DNA from: a virus | Taxonomy: Duplodnaviria > Caudoviricetes | Length of the DNA: 64,000 bases | Reading direction: 5' to 3' (one strand) | IMG/VR virus record: IMGVR_UViG_3300047382_000771 | Coordinates: 128,001 to 192,000 of that record | Shown: positions 1 to 63,908 of the stretch, piece by piece | Numbering within the stretch: position 1 is the stretch's first letter | How the letters are laid out: the number at the start of each line of letters is the position of its first letter | Program-made: the position numbers and the translations under genes | The notes under the pieces: model-generated | What the model saw: only the letters and a program-made list of their open reading frames with translations | Databases searched by the model: none | What the model was told of the DNA's origin: nothing

Positions 1-3000
1 ACTGTAGACTTAATTGTCTCTAAACTTTTTGCATTGTTATCTAGAGCTGATAATTTTAAAGCTTTCTTTTGAACTTCTATAGCTAAATTGTCGGCTTCAG
101 CTGATGCTTCGTCTGCTACAATTTTACCAAGCATATTCAAGTCAGACAACATACCCCTTCTAATGTCAGCCTCAATAGCCGCAGATTCAGCTGAAGACGC
201 CTCTTCGCCTATTTTGATAAGTTGATTCTTCATCAGCAACTGTTGCGTATCTAAAACTTCTTGATTCTTGGATGGGGCTGAAGATAGTAAACTGTTACTC
301 ATTCGAGATGACGACAATCCTTCCATTCCAGATTTTGAAGACTCAATCGCTTGCTTTCTTAAATTTTGAAATATTAATCCTTGAAATGCGAGGCTATCTT
401 GTTCTAATTTTAACCTTTTTGATGCGAACTTATTTTGAACAGATAACGTTGCGGCTTGACCCATAAGGTTTTCGGTTATCGTTTCTTGTGTCGCTAAAGT
501 TTTATTTAATTCTTTTTCTAATAATTTAGCCCCCTCAACTGTTTTAGCTTCTATTAATAATTTCTTTAAAGACTGCTTGTTTTTCTCGTCTTGCCTTTTT
601 GCCTCTAAATCTACAGACACAAGCAGTTGCGAGTATTTATCAGATGCTTCGGCTAATTTCTGTAAAGTACTTTCTTCTACAGCGAGAATGCCAGATTCTA
701 CCGCCGCAAGTGTTGCCGCCAGCTGTACCCTTGGGTCTTGCTCGTCAGCAATTTTTTGAGTTATTTCATTTAATTTTTCTTGGAATTGAGTACCCTCATC
801 GATTTCGGCTCCTTCAAATATTCTACTGACACCATTTTTTATTTCATCATCAACATTTAAATCAGTTATAACCCTAGAATTAAATTCAGTAAATTCAAAA
901 TCTGCATTAGCTGCATTTTGTAATCTTTTATTAAATGTTGAAATTGATTTAGCTAAATCATCTCCTTCTCTCTTTAAATCTGGAGACAATAAATTGGTAG
1001 TCATTATTGTTTTTGCTTGATCAAGTATGGCTATAGATAGTTCATCTTCTGCATCTGCGCGTTTTTTATTTAACGCATCAAGCTGGCTAGCTGCATCCCT
1101 GGATACTTTATTAAAAGCGGCGGTAGCATTACTCATCATGCCATACTCGCTGATTAAATCTTCAGATGCGGCAGACTCTTCTCTTCTTAACTTGTTCAAC
1201 TCTAATTGATGACCGAGGGTTATCTTTTCGTAAGACACTCTTGTTTTAGCTAAGTTAACTAGCTTGTTTAATTCTTTAGCAAATTTAGTGTCAGCCATCA
1301 TGATAGCCTTCTGACCATCAGAGATATCATTTTTAGATAAGCTGTCGGCTAATCTATTAATTAAGGCTGCAAAGCCTTTAATTTCATTATCACTTAAACC
1401 ACCCATATCGTACTCAAACTCATCAGTGGTTTTCTTTAAATTGTCTAGCATACCCTGAATCCCAACGCTACCAACCAATTCGTTAGCGTCAAAATTTAGT
1501 TCGTCTATATCCATTGATGGGTTAGCGGCAAGCTTTCTTAGTTCTGAAATGTTTTTTTGTAATGACGAATCTTGCTCTACGGCACTGGCTCCAGATTTAC
1601 CTTTTAATAAATCCTGCATAGCAAAAGCGCTCCTTGCTCCCTCTGCTTCTGATAGCCTTAAAAATTTCTCTACATTATCATCGCTATCTGCTTTGTCTAC
1701 ATTTTCTGAAAAATTAACCCTGTTTGATTCTACAGCAGTTAACATTTTAGTAACCACCAAAAGATCTTGTAATGCTTTTTTGTTTGCGGCATGAGCTTCA
1801 GTGCTTCCACCCAAAGCTTTATTAACAGCTTTTAATCCAAACTCTCCGACTTTATTCTCATCATAAAGAGCCCCCATGGAATCCATAAGTTTAGAATCAG
1901 CATCTAAGCTTTTTAATCTAAGATCATAATATTCTTGTTCTTGTTTTTGAGTTCTACCTGAGCCTAATATTTCAAGGTCCACCATTTTTTGCTGGATTTC
2001 TTCTTTAGACTTCATGGATTCAAGCGCAGCAGAAACAGTCTCTGAAGTCTTACCCAACTCCTCTATTTGTTTCCTGGCTTTAGAGGCACTACTTGAAAGC
2101 AAATCAAATATACCCTCTCCAACAAAAAACTTAAAAGCCTCATTAACAAGGGTGAAACCTGTGTACAGCTGACCTATTACTGGTAAGAACCTAGTAAATC
2201 CTCTAGCTAATGCACCTACCGACTTACCCAATAGTGGAATTTTTCCACCAGTCATCTTTGCGAGTCCACCACGAACTCCACCTCTTTGCTGGTTCCTTAA
2301 ATTTCTAGATACAGCCTCCCTCTCACCTGCATTTGCTGCAGCTTCTCTTTGCGGATTTCCCCCAAAAATATCTCCGACACTTCTTTGTTCGTCTGAACTT
2401 TGACCAAGAGCTTCCGATATTTCGGGGATTAATTCTTTTTGTTGCATGTATGCCGCAAAAACCTGCGACGCACCCATGCCTAACTCTGCTAAATTCTTAC
2501 TTGCGCCTGACGCTGTTGATGCAAATTCACCAAGGAATCCATTCGCCATAGAAATCATGGACTGGAAGAAGAATAATCTCTGCAGTCCGTTCTCTCTCCC
2601 TTTAGATTCTGCCTCTATAGCTGCCTCAGCCTTGCCAGTTTTTACAGCCAGATCATTAAATACCCTGGCTACTTTATCGCCTTCTTTTATGACCTCACTG
2701 TCACCTCCAGACCTTGCTTCAGCTTTTTGAAAAGCTCCAAACATTTCTTTCCTGGCAAGATCTGTGGCCCCCGTCAGTGCTGGATTAACAAATGCATCCT
2801 TATCTCCACCCGCTGCAGCTTTTTCAGCATGACTAATTTGGGTACTAACTTCCTCCACAGATTTAGATGCCTTCTCAAACTCTGTCTTGGTTAGCTTGTC
2901 TTTTAAAAATTGTAAACCTTTTTCTAAATCTTTAGCTCCTTCATTGATTGAAGTGATTATGGGTTCTAGGATTTTATCTTGATTAGATCCACCAAGAGGA

Positions 3001-51427: not shown

Positions 51428-51736
51428 ATGAGAAAAGTAACACAACAAATCAAGGAAGCTTTCGAGCAAGGCAAATCTTTAAAAGTAGGTAATACCAAGA
51501 CAGACGGCAAGACTGTTTGGTTGCATGGCAACGCTATTGTTAAGCGTGATCCTGACGGGCTTGTCAGGTGGTCGCTTGCGGGATGGAATACCCCCACCAC
51601 ACGCGAACGCGTCAATGGTATAGCAAATGCAGGAGTTTGTCAATATAAATTCGAGCCTGTGTTAAATGGTCAAGAAATTGACTCATCCGATTGGTTCGCC
51701 TGTAATACCACATTGCCTGATCCTCTCATTTTCTAA
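51428..51736 (+). CDS. Phage hypothetical protein
   Basis: LHGNAI...AGWNTPTTRERVNG, a motif pattern I associate with uncultured phage proteins. Confidence 0.7.
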   Translation: MRKVTQQIKEAFEQGKSLKVGNTKTDGKTVWLHGNAIVKRDPDGLVRWSLAGWNTPTTRERVNGIANAGVCQYKFEPVLNGQEIDSSDWFACNTTLPDPLIF

Positions 51737-51747
51737 CAAAAGCCTTA

Positions 51748-51817
51748 CCTAAGTGCTTGACTATCAGGCACTTAGGCGGGCCCGCCCGCATAAGTCGTTG
51801 GTATTCAATGACTTATG
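51748..51817. repeat. Double-palindrome element R1
   Basis: cctaagtgcttgactatcaggcacttagg-cgggcccgcccg-cataagtcgttggtattcaatgacttatg. Confidence 0.95.
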
Positions 51818-51931
51818 AAACATCCGTACAAACATCGCGCCAATTCACATGGTCGGATAGTGCAATAAAATAGTTGCTAGATAATTGCGAATAAATTTGA
51901 CTTTAGCTATAATTTCCCTTAGTTTATATAT

Positions 51932-52282
51932 ATGAAATCATTATATAACACAGACACACAAGAATTCACTTTTAACTTTATCATGGGCATCGATGGTACA
52001 TCCTACCGAGTCGAAGCGGTAGCTTGTCAAGATGATATCCTATTGAATGATCAGTATCGCGCCGAATACATCGACGTTTACATGGCTAAATTGACTGAGG
52101 AGAAAACAGGTGAATTGACCGAATCAAACACCTACAAGAACACAGATCTTTTAAAGGTTGTAAGCGATAAGCTCACAGAAAGGTTAATCACTAATGCAAG
52201 CAAAACATGGTTTGTGACTGATGCGCCAAGACTTTTCCTTGAGCAATTGGACACTTGTTTAGAAATAATGTTTGATAAATAA
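51932..52282 (+). CDS. Early hypothetical protein
   Basis: TTGACT-17-TAGTTT-6-ATG. Confidence 0.75.
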   Translation: MKSLYNTDTQEFTFNFIMGIDGTSYRVEAVACQDDILLNDQYRAEYIDVYMAKLTEEKTGELTESNTYKNTDLLKVVSDKLTERLITNASKTWFVTDAPRLFLEQLDTCLEIMFDK

Positions 52283-52671: not shown

Positions 52672-52741
52672 CCTAAGTGCTTGACTATCAGGCACTTATG
52701 CGGGCCCGCCCGCGTAAGTCGTTGGTATTCAACGACTTATG
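52672..52741. repeat. Double-palindrome element R2
   Basis: cctaagtgcttgactatcaggcacttatg-cgggcccgcccg-cgtaagtcgttggtattcaacgacttatg. Confidence 0.95.
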
Positions 52742-52858
52742 TAAAAATCGCTATAACGCGGCTTTTAGCCCGTGTCAAGATTATTTGGTAAAAAATAAAT
52801 CACAATTAAACATCTTTTTTCTTGCTATGTATTAGTATATCCCTTATGTTGTATATAT

Positions 52859-53098
52859 ATGACAGATAATTACGATTCACTCGACCGCCTCGCTCACGCC
52901 TCAGGGATGACTGACCTTGAATATGAAGCTCAACAAAAAGAGCTTGCTCGCCTTGCTCGTTTCGACAAAATCATCGAAGACGTTAGGGACAGCGATGAGC
53001 CTGCTGAAATGCCTGAGGTTCATCGCAACCATGAAGAGCCTAGCATAGACGCTTATGATGACTATGACTATGGCTACCATGACCAATACGAGCAATAA
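52859..53098 (+). CDS. Small very acidic early protein
   Basis: Own promoter; D/E/Y-rich C-terminus. Confidence 0.7.
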   Translation: MTDNYDSLDRLAHASGMTDLEYEAQQKELARLARFDKIIEDVRDSDEPAEMPEVHRNHEEPSIDAYDDYDYGYHDQYEQ

Positions 53099-53101
53099 GC
53101 T

Positions 53102-53172
53102 CGTAAGTCGTTGGTTATCAGCCCTTTATGCAGGGCGGCCCGCCATAAGCCGTTGAATACCAAGGACTTATG
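53102..53172. repeat. Double-palindrome element R3
   Basis: cgtaagtcgttggttatcagccctttatg-cagggcggcccgc-cataagccgttgaataccaaggacttatg. Confidence 0.95.
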
Positions 53173-53276
53173 TAAAAACTTCTATAGCGCGGGCTTAGTC
53201 CCGTGTCAAGATTATTTGATGGAAAATAAAACACAATTATGTTTGACATTCGCCCTCAAATATAGGATAGTAAGGT

Positions 53277-53465
53277 ATGACAAAAATTAAAGAACCATTC
53301 AATAAAGGCGATGTTCTTATATCGCGCGACAATCAAATACTGCAATACCAGGGCGAGTTCAATCATCCCGAGCTTGGTCTAATAGCTGAAGTGCGTATCT
53401 ATCGTACAGATCGCATAGTAGGCATTCGTTTCGAGGATGTAAAACTTCACCCGTTTTTCGCATGA
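53277..53465 (+). CDS. Early hypothetical protein (SH3-like)
   Basis: Promoter-linked; PFNKGDVL...; 62 aa. Confidence 0.7.
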   Translation: MTKIKEPFNKGDVLISRDNQILQYQGEFNHPELGLIAEVRIYRTDRIVGIRFEDVKLHPFFA

Positions 53466-53681: not shown

Positions 53682-53867
53682 ATGATCTCAATCAAAAAAA
53701 ATCAAAACTTCTCTAATTGGTTTCAAGTATTCGCTTTCGGTAAAATGATAGACGAATTCAGTCGCAGAAGCAAGGCGGTGCGTCGTGCTGAAGAATTAGC
53801 GATACAAGCAAACCAAAAATACATCAATGTCGAAGGACTTGCACAAAAAATTAAATATGGCAACTAA
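53682..53867 (+). CDS. Early hypothetical protein
   Basis: TTGACT-17-TACATT-8-ATG. Confidence 0.65.
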   Translation: MISIKKNQNFSNWFQVFAFGKMIDEFSRRSKAVRRAEELAIQANQKYINVEGLAQKIKYGN

Positions 53868-54066
53868 AAAACTCGTACTCACCACAATATCCCAAGGCAA
53901 GATTGCCGTTGTAGAAAGTGCCGAAAGGGCAGATGACAAGAGGGGAGAAAGATACATAAGCGAAGATTGCTTGGCTGTCAATCTTAAAAACGGAGCGTTT
54001 ACTGACATTACCGCAACAGGTGCAAACCCCGAAGGTAGATTGTATATGTTCACCGAAGATATGTAA
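53827..54066 (+). CDS. Hypothetical protein (start may be 53857)
   Basis: Last + strand gene before R4. Confidence 0.55.
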   Translation: MSKDLHKKLNMATKKLVLTTISQGKIAVVESAERADDKRGERYISEDCLAVNLKNGAFTDITATGANPEGRLYMFTEDM

Positions 54067-54132
54067 GTCGTTGATTATCAAGCCCTTAGGCGGGGCGGCC
54101 CGCCATAAGTCGTTGACTTACAGGGGTTTATG
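54062..54132. repeat. Double-palindrome element R4 (at the convergence point)
   Basis: tgtaagtcgttgattatcaagcccttagg-cggggcggcccgc-cataagtcgttgacttacaggggtttatg. Confidence 0.95.
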
Positions 54133-54135
54133 TAA

Positions 54136-54363
54136 TTAATCTTCCAAGAGCAACTCATCAAGTGCATTGATGTCAAGATCGGGATCGTTGTAGCTCGCCC
54201 CGTCAGGAGTCTGAAATGTTTCCATTTCTTCCAAACGATCTGCAAAATCAACATACCTCACACATCTGCGAGCTAACTTGTAAAGCAATTCGTCATTAGA
54301 TAACCAAAGTGCAACATTCCAAGTTGCCCAATTTTTCCATCCGTGATATGTTGTATCTGTCAT
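54136..54363 (-). CDS. Phage hypothetical protein (YxGWxNWxTWNVALW family)
   Basis: YHGWKNWATWNVALWLSND motif. Confidence 0.75.
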   Translation of the reverse strand: MTDTTYHGWKNWATWNVALWLSNDELLYKLARRCVRYVDFADRLEEMETFQTPDGASYNDPDLDINALDELLLED

Positions 54364-54365
54364 AA

Positions 54366-54569
54366 TTAACTTTCTTTAAATTCTTTTATAATTTGCTCCA
54401 TTTGTGAAAGTACAGATTTTTTGTTTCCTTTGAATCCGTATTGTTCTTTAATGATTGAATATGCTGATTGACCTCTTCTCTTCATTCCGACGCACTCCAT
54501 TTTGAGAGCGGATCTGAGACTGAGAAATCGAAACATATCTTGTTTTTCGGGTGTGTCTAATGTAATCAT
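54366..54569 (-). CDS. Early hypothetical protein
   Basis: TTGACA-17-TAGATT-6-ATG. Confidence 0.75.
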   Translation of the reverse strand: MITLDTPEKQDMFRFLSLRSALKMECVGMKRRGQSAYSIIKEQYGFKGNKKSVLSQMEQIIKEFKES

Positions 54570-54600
54570 AATAATAATCTAGTTCAGTTTGTTTTGTTTG

Positions 54601-54840
54601 TCAAGCTACTTCAGCCAAATCCTTTGCCAATGCTTTTTCTGCATCCACCTGCTGTTGTAGTAAGTTGAGTTTGTTGAGTAAACCTTTGTAGCCGATATAG
54701 TCGCCACGAAAGTGACCCTTCCAAACCCCGTCAACTCTTTGGAATGTAACATCCCAAGCAGATTTATAGTCATAAGTTCTTAGCAAGCCATTTGGCAAGC
54801 GCTCGAAGTAGAATTCTTTTCCGTTGTCTTTAATTGTCAT
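54601..54840 (-). CDS. Early hypothetical protein
   Basis: TTGCTA-17-TAGTGT-6-ATG. Confidence 0.75.
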   Translation of the reverse strand: MTIKDNGKEFYFERLPNGLLRTYDYKSAWDVTFQRVDGVWKGHFRGDYIGYKGLLNKLNLLQQQVDAEKALAKDLAEVA

Positions 54841-54903
54841 ACCAACACACTAAGGCATCTAACTAACTATAGCAAGAAAAAACTTCAATAAAAAAAAGAT
54901 TGT

Positions 54904-54974
54904 TCTAAGTCGTTGAATGTTAACGGTTTACGCAAGGCGGCCCGCCGTAAGTCGTTGACTTACAGGGGCTTATG
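54904..54974. repeat. Double-palindrome element R5
   Basis: tctaagtcgttgaatgttaacggtttacg-caaggcggcccgc-cgtaagtcgttgacttacaggggcttatg. Confidence 0.95.
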
Positions 54975-54977
54975 AAA

Positions 54978-55706
54978 TTAATGGGCTAAGTAAGCAATGC
55001 CTTTCTTGCATCCTTTGATGAAGCATAAGTTGCAATTATGGGCTTGACAAGTTGCAAGAATCTTGCCGTCCTCACCTTTAACATAAGTTGCGGGGCAAAC
55101 AAAATGTCCGTCTTGCTCGGCTTGCTCTTTGCTAGTATAAACCGAAGTGCCTGCGTCAAGCCCGTCTACTTGAGGGGCTGGCTCGTCAACATAGATTGCG
55201 CTCGGCTTAATGCAAACATTTTTAAGACTAGCTAACTTTTGCAAGTGTGGAAGTTGAGAGTCGCGTTTCCATTCTCTAGTTGGAAACCAAAATTTAATAG
55301 TTGGAAATTGCTCGCAAATTCTAACCCATGCAGAAATATACCTGGGGGAAAAGAGGTCGCCTGAATCATGAACGCGAAACAAATCCGTGTTTGTCTTTTT
55401 GAGTTTTTTCTTGTTGCCATGCTTGTCGAAATACTTTGCGCGAATTTGTTTGCACATTGCATTAACAAAAGTGTCTCCATTGTCTTGATGTAAAGACTTT
55501 GTAATGAGATCCGCCTTGCCTTGCAAGCTTGCCTTGACATTGGAAAACATATAAAAACCTTTGCAAGCATAGCAAGAATCGCAAATGAATTTCTTGCCCG
55601 CTTCTTTAATCTTTGCTAATAGCTGCGCGGCAGGGCAATACTTGAAAGCAGGAATGTTGAACGAATAGCAAGGCATCTTGCTCGGGTTGGATAATAAGTT
55701 AATCAT
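54978..55706 (-). CDS. Gp88-family protein (Cys-rich, radical-SAM-like fold)
   Basis: SKMPCYSFNIPA..CP...CDSCYA...FRVHDSGD...KFWFPTRE. Confidence 0.75.
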   Translation of the reverse strand: MINLLSNPSKMPCYSFNIPAFKYCPAAQLLAKIKEAGKKFICDSCYACKGFYMFSNVKASLQGKADLITKSLHQDNGDTFVNAMCKQIRAKYFDKHGNKKKLKKTNTDLFRVHDSGDLFSPRYISAWVRICEQFPTIKFWFPTREWKRDSQLPHLQKLASLKNVCIKPSAIYVDEPAPQVDGLDAGTSVYTSKEQAEQDGHFVCPATYVKGEDGKILATCQAHNCNLCFIKGCKKGIAYLAH

Positions 55707-55769
55707 AAGAATACATTACCACCGAACTTAACTAAACACAAGAAAAAAGTGAATTAAAATAAAAGTTGT

Positions 55770-55840
55770 CATAAGTCCTTGGTAGTCAAGCACTTACGCG
55801 GGGCCGCCCGCCATAAGCCGTTGAGTATCAACGACTTACG
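55770..55840. repeat. Double-palindrome element R6
   Basis: cataagtccttggtagtcaagcacttacg-cggggccgcccgc-cataagccgttgagtatcaacgacttacg. Confidence 0.95.
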
Positions 55841-55990
55841 GGGTTTCTTATCCGCGTCCCGCTAAAAGGGTGAGTTCTTATTTACCTGAACTCTATTTCG
55901 TCCCTGTCGCTGAACATACATTCAAACATAAGAAAGAAAGCAAAAAAGGTTGGCATGAGAAAGAATAAATAAACAAAAAATTCTAATATA

Positions 55991-56266
55991 CTATCCATTG
56001 TAGACTCCTTTCATTTGGTCAGATATACCTAAGCCCATGAAGTTGTCTTCTTCGTCAATGTCTTCGGCATTTGGGGAATGCTTTAACAATGAGGACTCAT
56101 CTTCAATGTCTGACTTTTGCGCGTCTAGTAAACCATGCTCGCCCAAAACCTCTTGAGACTTAATCTCTGAGACGAAATCCTCAAGGGAAGTTTTAAGACC
56201 AAGACCCTTGGAGTCTTGGACGGCGTGCTTAATGATGGCGATTCTTTGATCTTCTGTTAATGTCAT
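55991..56266 (-). CDS. Small acidic early protein
   Basis: TTGACT-17-TACCTT-6-ATG. Confidence 0.7.
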   Translation of the reverse strand: MTLTEDQRIAIIKHAVQDSKGLGLKTSLEDFVSEIKSQEVLGEHGLLDAQKSDIEDESSLLKHSPNAEDIDEEDNFMGLGISDQMKGVYNG

Positions 56267-56287
56267 AATAATAAGGTAATCTAGTTT

Positions 56288-56632
56288 TTAGTGAGAGTCA
56301 ACAAGTTTTTGATTAAAGTCTGCCCGTATTGCTACAAGCAAATCTTCGTGAGCTTTGCCGTCCATCTCAAATTGATGCATAAGAGAAGTAATTCTGTGTG
56401 GCTCTTGCCAACCTAGCACATCATCAGAGACAGATAAAGGAACCCAACTTCCGTCGGGATTAAATACTGCAACTTCAAAAGTATCGGGATAACGACCATA
56501 AAATGGCTCAAATGCTCCCTCATTTTTACCCGCAATAACTGAAAAAGAATATCCGTTGTCAAGTGTGAGCGATGCCATCCATCTTCTCATGGATTCATCG
56601 TAAGTGAATTTTAAATCATCGAATGTTTTCAT
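56288..56632 (-). CDS. Phage hypothetical protein (NGY.xSVI...FEVAV family)
   Basis: Own TTGACA promoter; motif pattern typical of phage early proteins. Confidence 0.7.
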   Translation of the reverse strand: MKTFDDLKFTYDESMRRWMASLTLDNGYSFSVIAGKNEGAFEPFYGRYPDTFEVAVFNPDGSWVPLSVSDDVLGWQEPHRITSLMHQFEMDGKAHEDLLVAIRADFNQKLVDSH

Positions 56633-56668
56633 ATAATAATATATATACTATTGGTTATTGTCTGTCAA

Positions 56669-56875
56669 CTAAAACTTTAGCGCTTGAATGGAAGTATTCT
56701 CTCTGCACCATTTTCTTAATGGATGATGAGCCTTTGGACTCAAGTGAGTCAAATACTGCTTCCCATTAGTTGCCATAAGCATATAGCCTTTGGCGGTTGC
56801 GCGGATGTCTTTGATTTCTGGACATTTACGCAATTGCTTTAGTATCTTTAAGTTTCCGCTATCTCTGTGTTTCAT
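56669..56875 (-). CDS. Small basic early protein, possibly HicA/dsRBD-like
   Basis: TTGCTG-17-TAATGT-6-ATG; alpha-beta-beta-beta-alpha pattern. Confidence 0.6.
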   Translation of the reverse strand: MKHRDSGNLKILKQLRKCPEIKDIRATAKGYMLMATNGKQYLTHLSPKAHHPLRKWCRENTSIQALKF

Positions 56876-56939
56876 ACTACTACATTAAGACGGATAGCAA
56901 GTGACAGCAAGAAAAAAAGTGTTTTTTTTTACTTAGCTA

Positions 56940-57010
56940 CATAAGTCGTTGGTTATCAAGCATTTATGCGGGGCGGCCCGCCGTAAGTCGTTGAATATCA
57001 ACAACTTATG
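56940..57010. repeat. Double-palindrome element R7
   Basis: cataagtcgttggttatcaagcatttatg-cggggcggcccgc-cgtaagtcgttgaatatcaacaacttatg. Confidence 0.95.
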
Positions 57011-57026
57011 AAATAAATCAGCCCAC

Positions 57027-57055
57027 AAAAAAGCCCCTCCGTTTGGAGGGGCTTT
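57027..57055 (-). terminator. Rho-independent terminator after the DUF932 gene
   Basis: AAGCCCCTCC-N4-GGAGGGGCTT followed by a T run on the minus strand. Confidence 0.85.
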
Positions 57056-57076
57056 CTATATTTGTCAAGCTTTTAT

Positions 57077-57940
57077 TTAAGCTTCGACTAATTCACCTTC
57101 AACTACCTCCATATCGAGAACATTTTCGACATGGTTTTTAATATCAAAGTTGACCTCGCCATCAAGAACGGAGTGCAAGGCATCCGAGCGATTAGGTAAG
57201 GCAACTAAGTTTCCTTTATACACCTCAGTAAAAGCATTGTAAAGAGAATTTACATTGCGATCCCAAAATTCGGGGTGATCGGAAGACTCCCATTGATTGA
57301 CAACATCCATGATTTTAGACTTAGGCAAAGCACCTGCCTTGCAAGCCCTAATCACAAGATCGTTAGCATGGGAATTTGAAAGATCAAAATCTTTATAGGC
57401 ATTGATGCGATTGTCTTGACCATTCCAAAAGCCAAACAATTTGCCCAATGCACGATTGATAGTAAAATCAAGATCTTGCAAAATGTTGCGAGTGTGGCGA
57501 CGCGCTAATTTAATAGTATTGGTAAAAATAAGATTATCGCACACAAAGGGAGCATCACCTGCACACAATCCCGCAGGAAATGTTTTGTCGTGAGAGTTGC
57601 GAAGACCAACTACACAACCACGATCACTAGCCTTACGATTAGGGTGATCGACTGAAAATAAACCAAAATAGTGGTTATCGTTGCGAGCAAGAGAGTGAAC
57701 CTCATCTTGAATGGTGAAGCCATTGGTTTCCAAAAAACCTTTGGTGCGATGCACTAATGCCTCATGGGCGATAGGCTGATAAGAGACGGCTCTTTCGCCA
57801 TTGGCATTTTCTTTCTTGCGATACTCTACGGGCGGAGTAGGAACCCCGACTACTTGATCGAAATCTACAAGAGTACGATTGCCTCCGCAGATATGAAGAT
57901 TAACTTTGGGTGAGTTGTTGGTATTTTCTGTAGTATTCAT
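57077..57940 (-). CDS. DUF932-family protein
   Basis: YQPIAH...GLRNSHDK...PFVCDNLIF...RRHT...SLYNAFTE. Confidence 0.8.
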   Translation of the reverse strand: MNTTENTNNSPKVNLHICGGNRTLVDFDQVVGVPTPPVEYRKKENANGERAVSYQPIAHEALVHRTKGFLETNGFTIQDEVHSLARNDNHYFGLFSVDHPNRKASDRGCVVGLRNSHDKTFPAGLCAGDAPFVCDNLIFTNTIKLARRHTRNILQDLDFTINRALGKLFGFWNGQDNRINAYKDFDLSNSHANDLVIRACKAGALPKSKIMDVVNQWESSDHPEFWDRNVNSLYNAFTEVYKGNLVALPNRSDALHSVLDGEVNFDIKNHVENVLDMEVVEGELVEA

Positions 57941-57978
57941 AATAGTGATAATATAGTAGTGATTGTTTTTGTCAATAG

Positions 57979-58212
57979 TTAATTTTTATAAACTTGAGAT
58001 AGTTGATCGTAGGCATAAGCTTTTTCAGCGATACTACCGAATACCTCTTTTAATAAAGAGTAGCCTAGTAAATCCCTAGCATCTAAATCTGCCTTGTCAA
58101 TAATATTGACTTCTAATAATTCAGTCGCTGTATCCATTGCTTGTATGGAATCTAAATTACTAAAGTCGATTTCTGTGTCGCCTTCGTTGTGTGAGTTAGG
58201 TATATAATACAT
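57979..58212 (-). CDS. Small acidic hypothetical protein
   Basis: 77 aa, D/E-rich. Confidence 0.6.
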   Translation of the reverse strand: MYYIPNSHNEGDTEIDFSNLDSIQAMDTATELLEVNIIDKADLDARDLLGYSLLKEVFGSIAEKAYAYDQLSQVYKN

Positions 58213-58321
58213 AATTTTTCTTGTGTTTAACTTTGCGGTCTAAGACTTTGTTTCTCATTTTGAATGCTCTTGCCTTAGTGAAAAGGATTGGCTTTCTTAC
58301 TTTTACTTCTCTTGCTTTCAT
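58196..58321 (-). CDS. Small very basic early protein (41 aa, MKAREVKVRK...; start revised)
   Basis: TTGCTA-17-TACTAT-6-ATG at 58321; the longer ORF-track version runs through R8. Confidence 0.6.
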   Translation of the reverse strand: MKAREVKVRKPILFTKARAFKMRNKVLDRKVKHKKNYVLYT

Positions 58322-58385
58322 ATAAGTATAGTAAGCTATAAAAGTAATTATAGCAAGAAAAAAGTTAAGTAAATTGGCATTTTGT

Positions 58386-58456
58386 TGTAAGTCGTTGAAT
58401 ATCAACGAGTTGCGCGGGGCAGGCCGACCTAACCCCTTGATAACCAAGGAGTTAGG
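58386..58456. repeat. Double-palindrome element R8 (divergent core)
   Basis: tgtaagtcgttgaatatcaacgagttgcg-cggggcaggccga-cctaaccccttgataaccaaggagttagg. Confidence 0.9.
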
Positions 58457-58647
58457 CCTTTTAACTACTAACTAAGCTGTAATGTGGCGAGTTCTTTTCT
58501 CCGCCCTATAGAGTTGATATAATAAATCCTGGTGGGACCTTTTTAAGGTGAAGTACTCGGGGGTGTTTTCCCCGTATATTTCTCTGACCGCTAATTGGTA
58601 CCCAAGTTTACGAATGTTTTCTCTGAGAGTTTTAATTTGCATTTTTT

Positions 58648-58881
58648 TTATCCTTTGTTAAGTGAGATTATACGATCATAACGAAAGGAGCGAACAGCTC
58701 CCCTGTTGAAGCAGTAGCTCCTGAAGCCCGCAACAGCGAGACCTTCTTTGACATTACCGAACTCATTTTTGTGTTTCGGCTTTGTGATAGTGTACATCTG
58801 CGTTTTACCGTCTTTAGTATTGTAAACAACACTGTATACGGGGAGTAATAACTTAAGCAACTTCAATAACATTTTCTTCAT
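58648..58881 (-). CDS. Stand-alone WYL-like domain protein
   Basis: YSVVYNTKDGK...RSFRYDRIISL. Confidence 0.6.
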   Translation of the reverse strand: MKKMLLKLLKLLLPVYSVVYNTKDGKTQMYTITKPKHKNEFGNVKEGLAVAGFRSYCFNRGAVRSFRYDRIISLNKG

Positions 58882-59107
58882 GTTGATCCTTTCTTACGGG
58901 GTTTAAGTTGTAGTGATTGTAAGCATCAGTCACTTCCTGTGCTGATTCGAAACTTACAGAAATTAAATCTCTCTCTTGGCTTGGATGCCATGGTGTCTCT
59001 GATTCCTCAAAGAATAGTAACCAAAGTTCTGATTCCTCGTCCCATTCGGGCAAACCCAAAGGCTTCCCGATACAAGTTGCTTCTATGTAATTGTTCATGA
59101 TTATCAT
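58853..59107 (-). CDS. Small acidic hypothetical protein
   Basis: 84 aa, preceded by TTGACA. Confidence 0.6.
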   Translation of the reverse strand: MIIMNNYIEATCIGKPLGLPEWDEESELWLLFFEESETPWHPSQERDLISVSFESAQEVTDAYNHYNLNPVRKDQHEENVIEVA

Positions 59108-59142
59108 AATGTACTACTTAGTTGTTGGTGTCAACTCCTTAA

Positions 59143-59364
59143 TTAACAAGGAATTGGTGAATCTTCTTCTGTTTCAATGGTAATGCAAAAGTGGCTTGCG
59201 AGCTCCTTGATCATTACATCATTATTGAAATAATTATAAGCAAAAGTTAAAAGTTGCTCTTGCTCTTCCCCTGTATGGCCGTCTCTGAGTTCGTCATATA
59301 TCTCAAAGATATTCATATTCCAATTCCATCCCTCTACTCTTGATTCTATCTGTGATTTTGTCAT
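59143..59364 (-). CDS. Small acidic hypothetical protein
   Basis: 73 aa with AAGGA RBS. Confidence 0.6.
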   Translation of the reverse strand: MTKSQIESRVEGWNWNMNIFEIYDELRDGHTGEEQEQLLTFAYNYFNNDVMIKELASHFCITIETEEDSPIPC

Positions 59365-59377
59365 AATGTTCCTTGTG

Positions 59378-59611
59378 TTATAGTTGTGCTGATTGAAAAG
59401 ATGATTCTATCCTAATCTCGTTTTGTAGTGATGTCAAACTCAAAATGATATCTTCCAAGGTTTCTTCGGCAGACATTATAGTCGCACCAAGTGGAAACTT
59501 TTCAGGATGACGCTCGTGTTGTTGAAGACATACCTTGGACATTGGATCTGCCCACGCAAGTTCTCCTCGAACTATGTTTAAGATTTCTTCTCTAATTTTA
59601 CTTTGCGTCAT
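59378..59611 (-). CDS. Hypothetical protein
   Basis: 77 aa, overlapped by the upstream 57-aa ORF. Confidence 0.6.
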   Translation of the reverse strand: MTQSKIREEILNIVRGELAWADPMSKVCLQQHERHPEKFPLGATIMSAEETLEDIILSLTSLQNEIRIESSFQSAQL

Positions 59612-59771
59612 TTTTTGCCCTTTCGTTTAGATTGTCCGCTATCTTTGCAAGACGAAGAATTTCCGCTTGAACAAACTTTTTAGCTTGTGGTTCTGCTTTT
59701 GGGTTCTTCAGCACCTCGATCATTGGAAGAATGAGCGCTGACCATTTAGGTGTTACATCAATCGTTTTCAT
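59598..59771 (-). CDS. Hypothetical protein (57 aa, MKTIDVTPKWSALI...; below ORF-track cutoff)
   Basis: TTGACA-17-CATACT-7-ATG; hand translation. Confidence 0.6.
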   Translation of the reverse strand: MKTIDVTPKWSALILPMIEVLKNPKAEPQAKKFVQAEILRLAKIADNLNERAKNDAK

Positions 59772-59912
59772 GTTTTACAGTATGCTTTAATTCTTGGATG
59801 GTGTCAAATATAATTTTATGAATTTCATCAGTAAATTCGATTGGAGCACCCGCGTCTGATAAGTAATCACGAACTCTATCTTGAAGTTTTACTTGTAATT
59901 TGTGTATTGGAT

Positions 59913-60119
59913 TCATCTGTGCAAAGCTACCCTCACTTCATTCTCATGTTTTTTTTGTTCAACTAAATCTTTTAAGTCAAAGCTAATACTGCAGAGAGTA
60001 CTACTGATATTCTCCATCACCTTGACGAGATCCCCCATGTTTGCGTGTCTACGATTTTCTAACATCTCGTCAGCGACTCCGTCAATGGCGGTTTTAATTG
60101 CATATAATTCTTCTTTCAT
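59913..60119 (-). CDS. Hypothetical coiled-coil protein
   Basis: 68 aa abutting its neighbours. Confidence 0.55.
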   Translation of the reverse strand: MKEELYAIKTAIDGVADEMLENRRHANMGDLVKVMENISSTLCSISFDLKDLVEQKKHENEVRVALHR

Positions 60120-60317
60120 TTAGCTATACTTTACTCCTTCTAATTCTGATTGCAACCATAAAATGGCTTTTTGTCTGATGTCACAGTGTGAGACTTCAGT
60201 AAATACATTGTCATTGACTCGAAGATAAAGATCGTTTCCGTTCTTTTTTTCTGTCTCTAAGTCGTTTGCTTCATACCACTTTTGGGCATAATCTATCATT
60301 CTTTGTTCGTGGCTCAT
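60120..60317 (-). CDS. Hypothetical protein
   Basis: 65 aa. Confidence 0.55.
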   Translation of the reverse strand: MSHEQRMIDYAQKWYEANDLETEKKNGNDLYLRVNDNVFTEVSHCDIRQKAILWLQSELEGVKYS

Positions 60318-60440
60318 TTTAATCCTCGCTGTTTATGAAAGCATTGTATAATTTTATTAAATCTGCATCAGATCCATGCTCAATGATGCTCATTAGATAA
60401 TCAACTATGTCTGATTGTGATAAGTTTTGTGTTTCTTTAC

Positions 60441-60842
60441 TCATGGTATGTAGGCGGTTACTTGGTTGTGTGATAATAAAACTTCATCTGCGTAGTATAC
60501 AAACTTTTCGGTGTTCTTGTCAACAAAAGTCTCATACTTGTATGGATTATATGTTACCTGGGTAGCGGGTCTGTCGGTGTTTACATTCTCAGCATCCTGA
60601 AGGTAACCCTTGACAAATGCGTGAACATTCTTCTTCTTTTCACGAAGAACTTTTTCTCTACCCTTGATATCAACATGAAAGTAGCAATCCCACAAACCAA
60701 TAGAATGATCCTTTGGGATGTGAGCCTTAACTAACCCGTGTTGCTTGACTGACCAGCAGTCCTTGTGGAGATTCTTGTATACATAAACAGGTCGATTGGA
60801 CTTGAGAATGTATCTTGGGTCTTGTTGGTTTCTCTTAATCAT
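60441..60842 (-). CDS. Phage hypothetical protein (VYxNLHKxxWSV...KNVHAFV...VTYNPY family)
   Basis: TTGCGT-17-TATTGT-6-ATG; motif pattern. Confidence 0.75.
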   Translation of the reverse strand: MIKRNQQDPRYILKSNRPVYVYKNLHKDCWSVKQHGLVKAHIPKDHSIGLWDCYFHVDIKGREKVLREKKKNVHAFVKGYLQDAENVNTDRPATQVTYNPYKYETFVDKNTEKFVYYADEVLLSHNQVTAYIP

Positions 60843-60906
60843 ATAACCACAATAGTCTACTTAGGCAGTTGACGCAAGAAAAAAGTGAAATTAATTTCAA
60901 TGTTGT

Positions 60907-60977
60907 CGTAAGTTGTTGTTTACCAAGCACTTACGCGGGGCGGCCCGCCATAACTCGTTGACTATCAAGCACTTACG
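60907..60977. repeat. Double-palindrome element R9
   Basis: cgtaagttgttgtttaccaagcacttacg-cggggcggcccgc-cataactcgttgactatcaagcacttacg. Confidence 0.95.
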
Positions 60978-61165
60978 GAAGTCAAGTTTTTGAGCAAAAA
61001 AAATGACAACTAATTATTTAGCTGCCACTTATTTATAATATATTTATTTGTAATTGATTTGTAATATATGTATTTGTAATTTAATAATTTATTATGTCTT
61101 ATAGTTTTGTACTAGTATAAAAAACACTATAGCTGTAAAAGATAAAAACATTATTGCATCCACTG

Positions 61166-61456
61166 TTATCTAGCTCTTATTTTGTTTATAGCTAACTTGA
61201 TAAAATTTGGTGTTAAGTGGTGCTCTAACATGGAGTCTAATTCCCTAGAGGATAAGAATACTTCTCTGCAGTAGTCAGTATTGTCACTTTCTACAGCTGC
61301 AATTCTTGCCGATGCTTTAGACGCAGCTATCTGCTCCCTAGGCATCCCGCCCCATTTAATAATAACGGGAAGATCGGGCAACTCTGCCGATAAAGCTTTT
61401 AATTGAACGGAGTCTATGTAACCCCAATTATCGATGATGTCTTTTAATATAGTCAT
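61166..61456 (-). CDS. Early hypothetical protein (96 aa; start revised to MTILKDII)
   Basis: TTGCCT-17-TATATT-6-ATG at 61456. Confidence 0.7.
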   Translation of the reverse strand: MTILKDIIDNWGYIDSVQLKALSAELPDLPVIIKWGGMPREQIAASKASARIAAVESDNTDYCREVFLSSRELDSMLEHHLTPNFIKLAINKIRAR

Positions 61457-61504
61457 AAGAGTAATATAGATTAAGCCCCAGGAAGAGGCAAGAAAAAAAT
61501 ACAT

Positions 61505-61544
61505 AAAAAAAACCCCACTCGCCGAAAGGAAAACGAGTGGGGTT
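61505..61544 (-). terminator. Strong Rho-independent terminator
   Basis: AACCCCACTCG-N12-CGAGTGGGGTT followed by a T run on the minus strand. Confidence 0.85.
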
Positions 61545-62016
61545 TAGGGATGGGGGACGTGAGCTTTCGCTCGAAATAGATGTGGGACAGGAATACTGAA
61601 TACCTGCAACTTTCGGTGTGAACATCAGTTCATTGGTTATCCTACTTGTACTACAATTGAATTGGACATTCTACCTCAGACATTTGTCCATTGGCACTCC
61701 ACCACAGAGAATCATATACCTTACCTCGCACACAAAGAGGTCTTCGGTCACCCACAGGGAGGATTATAAGCCCTCCCAAAGAGAATCACGAAGGAGAAAC
61801 AAAACTGACAACTCTGCTTGGCGCCTTCTTTGCAGGGGTTCGTCAACCAATGTCATATCAAGTTTCTGCTTAGCGAGCAGTCTTCAATCAGTACGGAGAT
61901 GTAAGATTGTAAGTACTGAAGCTAAAACTTCGTAAAATTATTTAAAATGTAAAAGATCGAAAAGTCTGGGGTTATTTTATTTGATTGAGTTACCCCTTCT
62001 CAATTATGGAGAATAT
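61505..62016 (-). ncRNA. Candidate structured ncRNA of about 510 nt
   Basis: TTGACA-17-TACTAT promoter with no ATG at the start site, many hairpins, own terminator, no convincing ORF. Confidence 0.5.
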
Positions 62017-62877: not shown

Positions 62878-63054
62878 TTACTGATGAGCAAATACTTGTG
62901 AATCAAATTGGAAACAAGCGGGGCAATAGGTCTTCCTCCATATGGGGTTGTCGGCGCGACAAAATGGACAAATTTTTCCTCCAATTATTTGAGACTTCGG
63001 TGCGCAACTAGAAAGTAAGCAAGTTATTATTAAGTATTTTATAAAATTTTTCAT
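62878..63054 (-). CDS. Small putative lipoprotein with CxxC...CxxC (58 aa)
   Basis: MKNFIKYLIITCLLSSC-APK...CPFC...CPAC; canonical LSSC lipobox. Confidence 0.65.
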   Translation of the reverse strand: MKNFIKYLIITCLLSSCAPKSQIIGGKICPFCRADNPIWRKTYCPACFQFDSQVFAHQ

Positions 63055-63193
63055 TCAATTATTTATAATGCCAAACAAATCGAGTGTTCAATGAAGGCAC
63101 AAAACCCCAGTAACAAAGGGTAAAACAACCTCGTCCGATAACATCTATCGACTCTATGCCTCGATTTATTATTTGGCAAAAATTTATTTACAA

Positions 63194-63499
63194 TTATTTG
63201 GGCTTATTCTGTTCCTGTTCTACTATTAATTGATCCTGTATTACATCATTCACATAGTATATGTTGTCGAATAACCCTTTGGCTCTCTTTCCATTATTTG
63301 TAATTTTATTTAATTCAGTAAAAATTCTGTCCAACATATCATCCACTACCTTATTTGCCTCTTCTACATCCACCTTCTGCCCTGTCTTGATGTTTGTTAT
63401 TTGGGCATCTGCGTTTATATTTTCGAGCATCCTGTTCATTTCTGACTTGATGGACAAGATTTCATCTAACTTGATATTAATTTCTTTTGCTAAACTCAT
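63194..63499 (-). CDS. Hypothetical coiled-coil protein
   Basis: 101 aa; TTTACA-17-TATACT upstream. Confidence 0.65.
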   Translation of the reverse strand: MSLAKEINIKLDEILSIKSEMNRMLENINADAQITNIKTGQKVDVEEANKVVDDMLDRIFTELNKITNNGKRAKGLFDNIYYVNDVIQDQLIVEQEQNKPK

Positions 63500-63665
63500 A
63501 ATAGAAGCAGTATATTAAATTATTTGGCGTTTGTAAAGTATAAAATTTATTATTTATTGCCCCGATTATTGTATTAAAATTTTTATTTAATTATTTGGGG
63601 CTTTCTATTTACAATTATATATTTATCTTATTTAAGTTATATTCAAAAAGTGGGCGGTTTTATTC

Positions 63666-63908
63666 TTATTTAAATTTTTTATGATTAAATGGGGGCAATA
63701 ATAATATTAAATTATTTGGCTCATCTCTATTTATAGGCATAACATCCAAGAACGGATAGACTTCTTCTTTACTCAAGTCAGTCCAACATATGTCATCCAA
63801 GACATGGGAGCAAGCCTTTGAGGGGTCAAGAAGACTACCTAGAATGTGTGCGTATCCACTCTCGATGCAATCTTCTACGTGCTTTATGCTTGCTTCTTGT
63901 AAATTCAT
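63666..63908 (-). CDS. Early hypothetical protein
   Basis: TTGACT-17-TATTTT-6-ATG. Confidence 0.65.
   Translation of the reverse strand: MNLQEASIKHVEDCIESGYAHILGSLLDPSKACSHVLDDICWTDLSKEEVYPFLDVMPINRDEPNNLILLLPPFNHKKFK

Follow-up and report, generated by a model that had tools for sequence, protein, structure and literature searches.

A 67-nt palindromic element, in five of nine copies at a near-constant short distance from a predicted leaderless promoter, recurs between early-gene cassettes of an uncultured marine phage

The BIME (RIP) elements of E. coli consist of two inverted REP palindromes around a linker, and some of them bind IHF; they are host chromosomal elements that are mobilised by RAYT transposases. 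IHF also stimulates the Mu Pe promoter, and the A/T-rich tracts at −40 to −60 known as UP elements raise promoter output by way of the alpha subunit's C-terminal domain in RNA polymerase. At lambda PL, IHF acts with a distant UP element (Giladi 1998, as cited in PMC1784095). T4-type phages carry PeSL (promoter-early stem-loop) cassettes, for which both the anatomy (a stem-loop, an AT-rich region and a sigma-70 promoter) and a role in gene shuffling have been described (Arbiol 2010, PMC2839356; Comeau 2014, PMC4122927). In the Stenotrophomonas phage DLP6, paired 13-mers have been published as 'phage promoters in groups of two' (PMC5349666). The PeSL/PmSL cassettes are the closest known system to the locus that we describe here.

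We analysed a window of 64,000 nt (positions 128,001 to 192,000 of IMG/VR record IMGVR_UViG_3300047382_000771) from a 200-kb uncultured marine phage. It contains nine copies, R1–R9, of a tripartite 67-nt element in which a 25-nt palindromic arm is followed by a GC hairpin and a second arm, all of them inside 9.2 kb. Matches to the element pattern numbered 32 against 0.04 expected from shuffles, and a search of the rest of the 200-kb genome found no further copies. The features are listed below in window coordinates, with no strand assigned to the elements themselves; gaps in brackets are those of an earlier note on this DNA.

51750..51815, no strand: R1 element, inverted in orientation relative to R3–R9; begins 13 nt past the stop of gene 51428-51736
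51897..51934, + strand: R1 promoter, TTGACT-17-TAGTTT-6-ATG, gap 81 (79)
52674..52739, no strand: R2 element, inverted orientation
52740..52821, + strand: R2 long spacer, with an extra module of a CTATAAC box, a small hairpin and a TGTCAAG box (reverse complement TTGACA), then the CTTTTTTC tract
52822..52861, + strand: R2 promoter, TTGCTA-17-TATGTT-8-ATG, gap 82 (80)
53104..53170, no strand: R3 element
53243..53279, + strand: R3 promoter, TTGACA-17-GATAGT-5-ATG, gap 72 (70), lacking the 10-nt T-tract piece of R2
54064..54130, no strand: R4 element, occupying the entire gap between convergent genes 53827-54066 (+) and 54136-54363 (−)
54838..54875, − strand: R5 cassette promoter, TTGCTA-17-TAGTGT-6-ATG, leaderless as predicted from its layout
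54876..54905, − strand: R5 spacer, 30 nt of A/T with CTTTTTTC at its end adjoining the −35
54906..54972, no strand: R5 element, 3 nt past the stop of gene 54978-55706 (−)
55704..55741, − strand: R6 cassette promoter, TTGTGT-17-TAATGT-6-ATG, gap 30
55772..55838, no strand: R6 element
56873..56910, − strand: R7 cassette promoter, TTGCTG-17-TAATGT-6-ATG, gap 31
56942..57008, no strand: R7 element
57030..57055, − strand: ordinary terminator, a hairpin and T-run between gene 57077-57940 and R7
58319..58356, − strand: R8 cassette promoter, TTGCTA-17-TACTAT-6-ATG, gap 31
58388..58454, no strand: R8 element, which has diverged most among the copies, 17 nt past the stop of gene 58472-58642
60840..60877, − strand: R9 cassette promoter, TTGCGT-17-TATTGT-6-ATG, gap 31, at the head of an 11-gene operon running from 60842 down to 58472
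60909..60975, no strand: R9 element
61454..61491, − strand: element-free promoter of the same T-tract type, TTGCCT-17-TATATT-6-ATG
61510..61545, − strand: ordinary terminator, a 14-pair stem and T8, at the position that elements take in other cassettes

Every element follows a stop codon, at a distance of no more than 45 nt in seven of the nine copies. Both convergent arrays stop at R4, which fits a layout in which elements bound every cassette; an outward promoter, sought on both sides of R4, was absent. The other eight elements are each linked to a promoter of one pattern, TTGnnn-17-TAnnnT-like (GATAGT at R3), with an ATG 5–8 nt past the −10 and exactly 6 nt past it in six cases. Because this spacing leaves no room for a leader, the eight promoters are predicted to be leaderless transcription starts. 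We took each gap as running from the final base of the 25-nt arm core up to the T of TTG; by this measure R5–R9 have gaps of 30, 30, 31, 31 and 31 bp, and R1–R3 have gaps of 81, 82 and 72 bp. The earlier note had drawn the element edge 2 nt wider than the arm core, which lowers every gap by 2; after this correction, its values of 28, 28, 29, 29 and 29 bp (R5–R9) and of 79, 80 and 70 bp (R1–R3, + strand) were recovered exactly. Its placement of the proximal arm centre near −79 agreed with our −78/−79 (TSS set to the A of ATG), and the A/T tracts that it saw filling the short gaps were present in 5/5 short spacers, each of which ends in CTTTTTTC abutting the −35. This tract covers about −36 to −43, where relatives have A- or T-runs, and its composition fits a candidate UP element.

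The fixed 28–29-bp gap is thus confirmed, and it belongs to a repeated unit of palindrome, A/T tract, promoter and predicted leaderless start that lies between exchangeable early-gene cassettes. The whole unit of 99–130 nt, which spans ATG and element, forms a repeat family with 61–79% identity (families D2 and D5, within the window), so the short gaps of R5–R9 do not represent five independent events. R2 and R3 are also homologous cassettes: their flanks share 76% identity across 107 nt (family D6), and they differ by a 10-nt indel that corresponds to one helical turn.

Like PeSLs, the elements are intergenic composite repeats: small early genes are headed by a sigma-70-like promoter, with an AT-rich region before it and, just upstream of that region, a sequence capable of forming a stem-loop. 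Copies of both kinds cluster in plastic regions, and related genomes differ by whole cassettes exactly at the elements. Whereas PeSLs have a single, loosely conserved stem of a G-run and a C-run, the unit found here is tripartite and carries an arm word common to many phages. Since conservation of this word far exceeds that of PeSL stems, simple homology-driven shuffling may not explain everything. A PeSL closes with a Shine–Dalgarno sequence and start codon, but the starts here are predicted to be leaderless and have no Shine–Dalgarno sequence. The PeSL stem-loop is a terminator, and the elements here lack a T-run; this lack, together with a separate terminator-like hairpin just upstream of each of R7 and R9, makes a PeSL-like terminator role doubtful. 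PeSL hosts are T4-type phages; this phage, with its tape-measure protein and remote terminase, is not T4-like.

We found the element in more than 90 IMG/VR contigs, where it is usually followed by an outward promoter that is predicted to be leaderless. The family comprised 129 elements at 45 loci in a first set, with 74 such promoters, and 100 elements at 48 further loci in an independent set. The proximal arm showed a polarity toward the promoter in the first set (30 versus 11), and this was replicated in the second (25 versus 12). The earlier note had taken element, UP tract, promoter and leaderless ORF to be a single unit. Their oriented co-travel was borne out by 114 oriented cassettes of the same architecture at more than 70 other phage loci, but the linkage is not obligate: R4 has no promoter, and the promoter at 61454–61491 and at least five perfect-TTGACA promoters in the same region, also predicted to be leaderless, have no element. 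Across phages the gap ranges from 13 to 108 bp and the arm-to-arm spacing takes values of 41, 48, 50, 53 and 58 bp. Conservation of the short spacer extends to three other contigs, and seven spacers of gap 31 form one cluster (L016, L038, L043 and the window); gaps near 30 also occur with unrelated spacer sequences in several contigs. The GC centre hairpin varies in sequence, and relatives sometimes have UUCG- or GNRA-like loops there.

Comparison with relatives revealed that whole cassettes have been gained or lost exactly at the elements, and that the promoter core moves together with the downstream genes. In L043, the homologue of window 54103–54933 is one element away from the homologue of 57071–57984, so that the window has two extra cassettes (R5–R6 and R6–R7). 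Conversely, L022 has two extra cassettes at the site that is occupied by R1 alone in the window. Contigs from seawater metagenomes lose their homology to the window at the element edges 55804, 55840 (two runs), 57008 and 58380, although the sides of these joints span only 26–30 nt, the length of an arm, and the joints could be repeat artefacts.

On balance, we favour the explanation that the constant gap is a feature of a PeSL-like junction module of about 130 bp that separates early-gene cassettes in this phage and many uncultured relatives. The module would run from a 25-nt palindromic arm through a GC-rich hairpin, a second arm and about 30 nt of A/T tract to a sigma-70-type −35/−10 and an ATG about 6 nt past the −10. 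Each module would launch a new transcription unit, leaderless here, and would mark a point of cassette gain, loss and swapping. R5–R9 would be five copies of its minimal form, other forms carrying optional spacer boxes with gaps of 13–108 bp; their common gap would stem chiefly from their being copies of a single minimal module with a conserved spacer. Counting against this explanation, descent alone predicts neither the gaps near 30 with unrelated spacers nor a peak at a 10.5-bp period in the pooled gaps (n=80, R=0.36, p=2e-5).

One alternative is that the element works as RNA, its three hairpins or one long hairpin serving as a terminator, RNase III site or 3′-end protector of the upstream operon, with the promoter merely following the end of that unit. 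The position of every copy past a stop codon would suit this, as would the place of R4 between convergent genes that have no further terminator, the varied GC centre with its occasional tetraloop-like sequences, the T-run-bearing hairpin at the corresponding place in DLP6, and predicted folds that are very stable (−20 to −50 kcal/mol). However, we found no pairing-specific covariation in the arm stems, the compensated fraction being 0.30/0.14 for intra-arm pairs, 0.13/0.14 for inter-arm pairs and 0.22/0.145 for non-pairing controls. Sense-strand mismatches showed no excess of G·U (45) over A·C (66), sense RNA folded no more stably than antisense, which was slightly better, and an Rfam search with the element returned no matching family. 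Across phages, moreover, the stem sequences are kept as words, and a plain hairpin has no need of that. In a scan for the intrinsic-terminator consensus, eight of the nine elements failed and only the centre of R2 passed, weakly; the terminators at 57030–57055 and 61510–61545 passed the same scan clearly. We consider an RNA-level role improbable. Also improbable, in our estimate, is a selfish or recombination-only repeat of the REP/BIME, MITE or attC kind, which would have spread or been kept as a recombination site with no role in transcription and would adjoin promoters because cassettes begin there. The cassette indels and homology breaks at elements are consistent with such a repeat. So is the resemblance to BIMEs, which are likewise extragenic nested palindromes at operon ends in many copies but are not known to keep a set distance from a promoter, and to an attC hairpin, which the inner half-arms and GC centre recall. 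The copies are confined to the plastic early region, as a repeat of this kind could be. However, a search of the phage genome found no Y1/RAYT transposase and no tyrosine recombinase, and no target-site duplications were visible at the element edges. The replicated polarity relative to the promoter and the preferred gap classes would be unexpected for a repeat blind to transcription.

Rather than as stems, the four half-arms each behave as a copy, independent of the others, of an 11–13-nt word with the core TCAACGACTTA. We infer from this that a sequence-specific DNA-binding protein reads them and that they are not maintained as RNA hairpins; given the lack of pairing-specific covariation and of RNA-strand bias, the arms look like protein-recognition words. 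IHF is one candidate only among the proteins that may bind them. The earlier note saw helical phase roughly kept on the other strand and pointed to the phase-dependent activation of lambda PL and Mu Pe by IHF from upstream sites; a fuller version of this reading has IHF or an IHF-like protein bound on a fixed face upstream of the UP tract, its bend activating an adjacent promoter with a weak −35 in the manner of those two promoters, and the spacing under selection. The half-arm word TATCAACGACTTA does fit the IHF consensus WATCAANNNNTTR, and element-linked promoters in the window have weak −35 hexamers (TTGCTA, TTGTGT and others) compared with TTGACA at element-free ones. Like the sites at lambda PL and Mu Pe, the site here lies upstream with its centre near −80, an A/T tract separates it from the −35, and there is a hint that helical phase plays a part. 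In the discovery set the gaps had a 10.5-bp periodicity (R=0.48, p=3e-6) with a periodogram peak exactly at 10.25–10.75 bp and the short and long classes in the same phase, and the eight gaps of the window all fall inside a 2.5-nt phase band; the replicated polarity of the proximal arm points the same way. But in the independent set the periodicity was not replicated: R was 0.15 with p=0.52, and a directed V-test gave p=0.13. It was also lost when every gap value was counted once (p=0.13). Strict consensus matches were found in 67/268 half-sites, a quarter, and in none of the four half-sites of R1, R2 or R5. Only 44% of half-sites carry the A of WATCAA, whereas the nominally free NNNN (CGAC) is 62–87% conserved, as much as the consensus positions themselves. 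No HU/IHF gene was found in the phage genome, R4 lacks a promoter, the promoter at 61454–61491 uses the same tract without an element, and the arm-to-arm spacing varies among phages. Neither phase-keeping nor a role for IHF was thereby established. Action of a bound protein on the promoter from one face of the helix is plausible; the full IHF explanation, with its candidate sites, a partly kept consensus and four half-sites arranged as two palindromes, seems unlikely to us. Short-gap promoters in relatives often carry a perfect TTGACA, which also speaks against it.

The junction module that we favour may have further layers: protein binding at the arms, an effect on promoter output, and termination or insulation. 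A tentative extension, itself rather unlikely, is that the arms dock one conserved architectural DNA-binding protein, probably from the host and possibly IHF-like, that the marine group and DLP6, a T4-like phage of an unrelated lineage, both exploit. From a fixed face about 80 bp upstream, the bound protein would switch the early leaderless promoters, and the sites that it marks would also be the joints for cassette exchange. If true, this would be a combined regulatory and recombination element of a kind not yet described. In the unrelated DLP6, the same 13-mer, AATCAACGACTTA, occurs 31 times upstream of promoters and fits the IHF consensus perfectly in 28 copies. DLP6 is T4-like and has nearly no proteins in common with this phage: the comparison yielded RNR, PhoH, a tail-fibre chaperone domain and one 99-aa ORF of unknown family, with no evident common regulator, which points to a host factor. 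In both phages the word is paired at gene-cluster boundaries, beside a GC hairpin and upstream of a promoter. The DLP6 words, however, are direct rather than inverted repeats, 25 bp apart and all reading with transcription, its hairpin has a T-run and is a predicted terminator, and its promoter resembles the T4 middle (MotA-box) type.

We found nine copies of the element in the window by repeat and pattern searches, each 66–67 nt long (R1–R9, in coordinate order). Every copy has three parts: a 25-nt palindromic arm with the consensus TAAGTCGTTG-N5-CAACGACTTA, a GC-rich centre with the potential for a 5-bp hairpin, and another arm 41–42 bp after the first. The arm search returned 32 matches against 0.04 expected, and no copy was found in the rest of the 200-kb genome outside this 9.2-kb stretch.

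Element copies, with the gap between the arm core and the T of the -35 TTG (in brackets, the gap from the element edge used in an earlier note, which is 2 nt wider)
51750: R1, promoter on + strand, gap 81 (79)
52674: R2, promoter on + strand, gap 82 (80)
53104: R3, promoter on + strand, gap 72 (70)
54064: R4, without a promoter
54906: R5, promoter on - strand, gap 30 (28)
55772: R6, promoter on - strand, gap 30 (28)
56942: R7, promoter on - strand, gap 31 (29)
58388: R8, promoter on - strand, gap 31 (29)
60909: R9, promoter on - strand, gap 31 (29)

All eight gaps in the earlier note were reproduced exactly. The eight promoters share a 17-nt spacer and a TAnnnT-like -10 hexamer, and the ATG lies 5–8 nt past the -10 (exactly 6 nt in six of them); by sequence, these promoters are predicted to be leaderless. 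For R5–R9 the predicted starts, at the A of each ATG, are at 54840, 55706, 56875, 58321 and 60842, and the regular TTGnnn-17-TAnnnT-6-ATG geometry supplies a clean set of leaderless predictions open to testing. Every short spacer (R5–R9) ends in CTTTTTTC abutting the -35. The stretch running from ATG through promoter and spacer to element is itself a repeat family in the window (D2, 99 nt, 64–79% identity; D5, 56 nt). Because R5–R9 are copies of one module, their five short gaps are not five independent facts, and the spacing is inherited together with the module. R2 and R3 have homologous flanks with a 10-nt indel between them. R4 fills the gap between two convergent arrays, and this position, together with its missing promoter, fits a layout with an element at both ends of every cassette.

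The element is not confined to this phage. An exact-arm scan of IMG/VR gave 45 loci with 129 non-redundant tripartite elements, and a second scan with a common arm variant, TAACTCGTTG-N5-CAACGAGTTA, gave 69 loci, 56 of them new; the family comprises about 250 copies on more than 90 viral contigs. In the relatives, as in the window, the elements form arrays about 1 kb apart. The sequence of the centre varies from phage to phage, and the arm-to-arm spacing is constant inside one phage and takes values of 41/42, 48, 50/51, 53 and 58 between phages. In the first set we counted 74 promoters of the form TTGnnn-16..18-TAnnnT-4..9-ATG pointing away from an element; an element followed by an A/T spacer, a promoter and a leaderless start is thus the general arrangement. 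The earlier proposal that these parts form one unit thus holds in that the unit is real, recurrent and oriented. We found no published description of the element in the searchable literature. In the Stenotrophomonas phage DLP6, its word had been recorded merely as a 'phage promoter' predicted by computer.

Bacterial genomes contained 45 matches to the exact arm palindrome, mostly in unrelated long hairpins or other repeats, a number compatible with chance, since 596 Gb contain many perfect stems of 10 bp. The same 25-nt palindrome occurs within multi-copy repeats of ~170 nt in two Treponema metagenome-assembled genomes (MAGs) and within a repeat of at least seven copies in one Verrucomicrobiae chromosome (among L053–L097), with flanks unrelated to the phage element. 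True tripartite elements were present in only three MAG contigs (L058, L059 and L064), which are probably phage DNA. These matches point to no host.

The earlier note also described the 28–29 bp gap as fixed, with phase roughly kept on the other strand. Between phages the gap varies, from 13 to 108 bp, and its modes lie at 30–31, 37–40, 47–50, 69–73, 79–84, 91–93, 101–102 and 106–108. When similar spacers in the first set were clustered and counted once (51 clusters, 26 contigs), the gaps showed a sharp periodicity at 10.25–10.75 bp (R=0.48, p=3e-6; p ~0.003 at one value per contig), with short and long classes in the same phase. However, the predicted phase was not replicated in an independent set of 29 new clusters from previously unused contigs (R=0.15, p=0.52; directed V-test p=0.13). 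The pooled gaps (n=80) still carried the signal (R=0.36, p=2e-5, peak 10.5–10.75), but it was gone when each gap value was counted once (p=0.13). Phase-keeping is thus suggestive only, and common ancestry of the module classes can account for much of the periodicity. In both sets, the triplet at the centre of the proximal arm shows one polarity towards the promoter more often than the other (30 versus 11 in set 1; 25 versus 12 in set 2). This replicated polarity and the 10-nt indel between R2 and R3 favour an oriented, geometry-sensitive unit.

The long gaps contain optional boxes, among them TGTCAAG (reverse complement TTGACA), CTATAAC and GTTAGA repeats, and the first two also occur after R2 and R3. 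A conserved TGTCAAG box lies ~32–45 nt upstream of the -35 in the window spacers at 52740–52800 and 53171–53242 and in the spacers of five database loci (L042, L035, L052, L020 and L157). A CTATAAC box, or two to three GTTAGA repeats ~10–12 nt apart, often come before it. Such an arrangement could serve as an inward-facing promoter or as a second regulator site.

The unit is not obligate. Ordinary terminators passed our scan clearly at 57030–57055, directly upstream of R7, and at 61510–61545. The latter sits in the element's place, upstream of a T-tract promoter on the - strand (61454–61491), which therefore needs no element. The elements themselves are without a T-run, and only the centre of R2 passed the terminator scan, weakly; at most, then, the element is a terminator of a weak or unconventional kind. 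A weak terminator-like hairpin with a T-run (61001–61030, - strand) is found just ahead of R9 along the direction of transcription, so that R9, like R7, has a separate terminator candidate before it. RNA run X20 yielded short contigs of a relative that all lie within genes, none spanning an element, and that carry no transcript starts or ends. The arrays also contain a second class of predicted leaderless promoters, with at least five members and with neither element nor T-tract.

Second-class promoters, each with a perfect TTGACA or TTGACT -35
54576–54604, - strand, -35 hexamer at 54604 (scan)
56267–56287, - strand, read by eye
56636–56664, - strand, -35 hexamer at 56664 (scan)
57948–57975, - strand, -35 hexamer at 57975 (scan)
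59106–59134, - strand, -35 hexamer at 59134 (scan)

Each has a 17-nt spacer and an ATG 6–7 nt past the -10, and each abuts the stop of the preceding gene.

A role of the arms as RNA hairpins was unsupported by wobble bias, folding or covariation. With elements oriented by the downstream promoter, the sense strand had 45 G.U and 66 A.C mismatches, and sense RNA folded no better than antisense. Compensated changes at variable stem positions were 0.30/0.14 within arms and 0.13/0.14 between arms, against 0.22/0.145 for half-sites that never pair, and the elements had no Rfam matches. The four half-arms thus act like independent copies of a word with the core TCAACGACTTA. Among cultured phages this word, as the 13-mer AATCAACGACTTA, occurs only in DLP6, an unrelated T4-like phage, which has 31 copies. 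These form direct repeats spaced by 25 bp, and a GC hairpin and a promoter come after them. The DLP6 authors listed them as PHIRE-predicted 'phage promoters in groups of two' (PMC5349666). In DLP6 (KU682439.2; for example, L099–L112), the 3' side of the hairpin runs into a MotA-box-like GCTTTAC, with TATAAT ~13–19 nt beyond; by their sequence, the pairs look like promoter-middle stem-loop cassettes.

A sigma-54 or T7-like promoter reading of the word was dropped on inspection by eye, since a GG-N10-GC geometry is lacking and the words stand in inverted orientation. The word fits the IHF consensus WATCAANNNNTTR, and perfectly so in DLP6. However, only 67 of the 268 half-sites in this phage group meet the strict consensus, none of them in R1, R2 or R5; just 44% of half-sites have the A of WAT, and the nominally 'free' positions, CGAC, are 62–87% conserved. 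IHF is thus a candidate reader of the arms, not a finding, and phase-dependent, IHF-like control is possible but unproven. Searches of the phage genome for HU/IHF, a Y1 transposase and a tyrosine recombinase found none. DLP6 and the present phage have in common only RNR, PhoH, a tail-fibre chaperone domain and one unknown 99-aa ORF, and we found no regulator common to both. With almost no shared proteins, a reader protein, if any, is more likely to be host-encoded. If a protein does read the arms, it would be a point at which early transcription is controlled in common in distant phages.

The unit fits best with the PeSL (promoter-early stem-loop) cassettes of T4-type phages, as a new variant of more elaborate build. 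PeSLs are intergenic repeats consisting of a stem-loop and, directly downstream, an AT-rich region with a sigma-70-like early promoter. They cluster where the genome is plastic; in reporter tests the stem-loops brought transcription to an end, and through recombination between PeSLs small genes are deleted, inserted or swapped (PMC2839356, PMC4122927). Cassettes are gained and lost at elements in the present phage group, which is the same evolutionary behaviour. In the related locus L043, homologues of window 54103–54933 and 57071–57984 are only one element apart; the window therefore has two extra cassettes, bounded by R5, R6 and R7. Conversely, at the point where only R1 stands in the window, L022 carries two further cassettes, each flanked by elements. 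The promoter core of the L043 cassette is similar to that of the R5 cassette, which indicates that the promoter travels with its genes and that the break is in or at the element. Metagenome contigs from related strains cease to be homologous to the window at the edges of elements (55804, 55840 in two runs, 57008 and 58380). Joints between elements in these data (R4–R6, R6–R7, R6–R8, R8–R9, R2–R4 and R9–R5) were set aside as evidence for deletions or circles, because their matching sides of 26–30 nt may be repeat-induced. If the elements are cassette joints, they would explain the shuffling of accessory early genes in these uncultured phages and help to mark off early transcription units in phage genomes from metagenomes.

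The record holding the window (bases 128001–192000) is a 200,094-bp IMG/VR virus, rated complete, that codes for terminase, tail proteins and a giant tape-measure protein. We found no close cultured relative: none of 50,697 phage records matched the region by megablast, and tblastn with the terminase gave remote matches only (≤25% identity). Near-identical DNA was found in seawater or viral metagenomes from 18 studies. Outside the window, at least 115 nt of identical sequence occur at genome positions 57 and 199990, one copy per record end; this is a terminal repeat or, if the map is circular, an overlap from assembly. A manA RNA motif (Rfam RF01745; 61577–61777, - strand; 61.8 bits against a gathering score of 55.2) is located directly upstream of the early arrays. 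At 62970–63733, a 32% GC stretch, short direct repeats cluster around AATTATTTGG (families D7–D12); they resemble iterons and might represent an origin or a further regulatory array.
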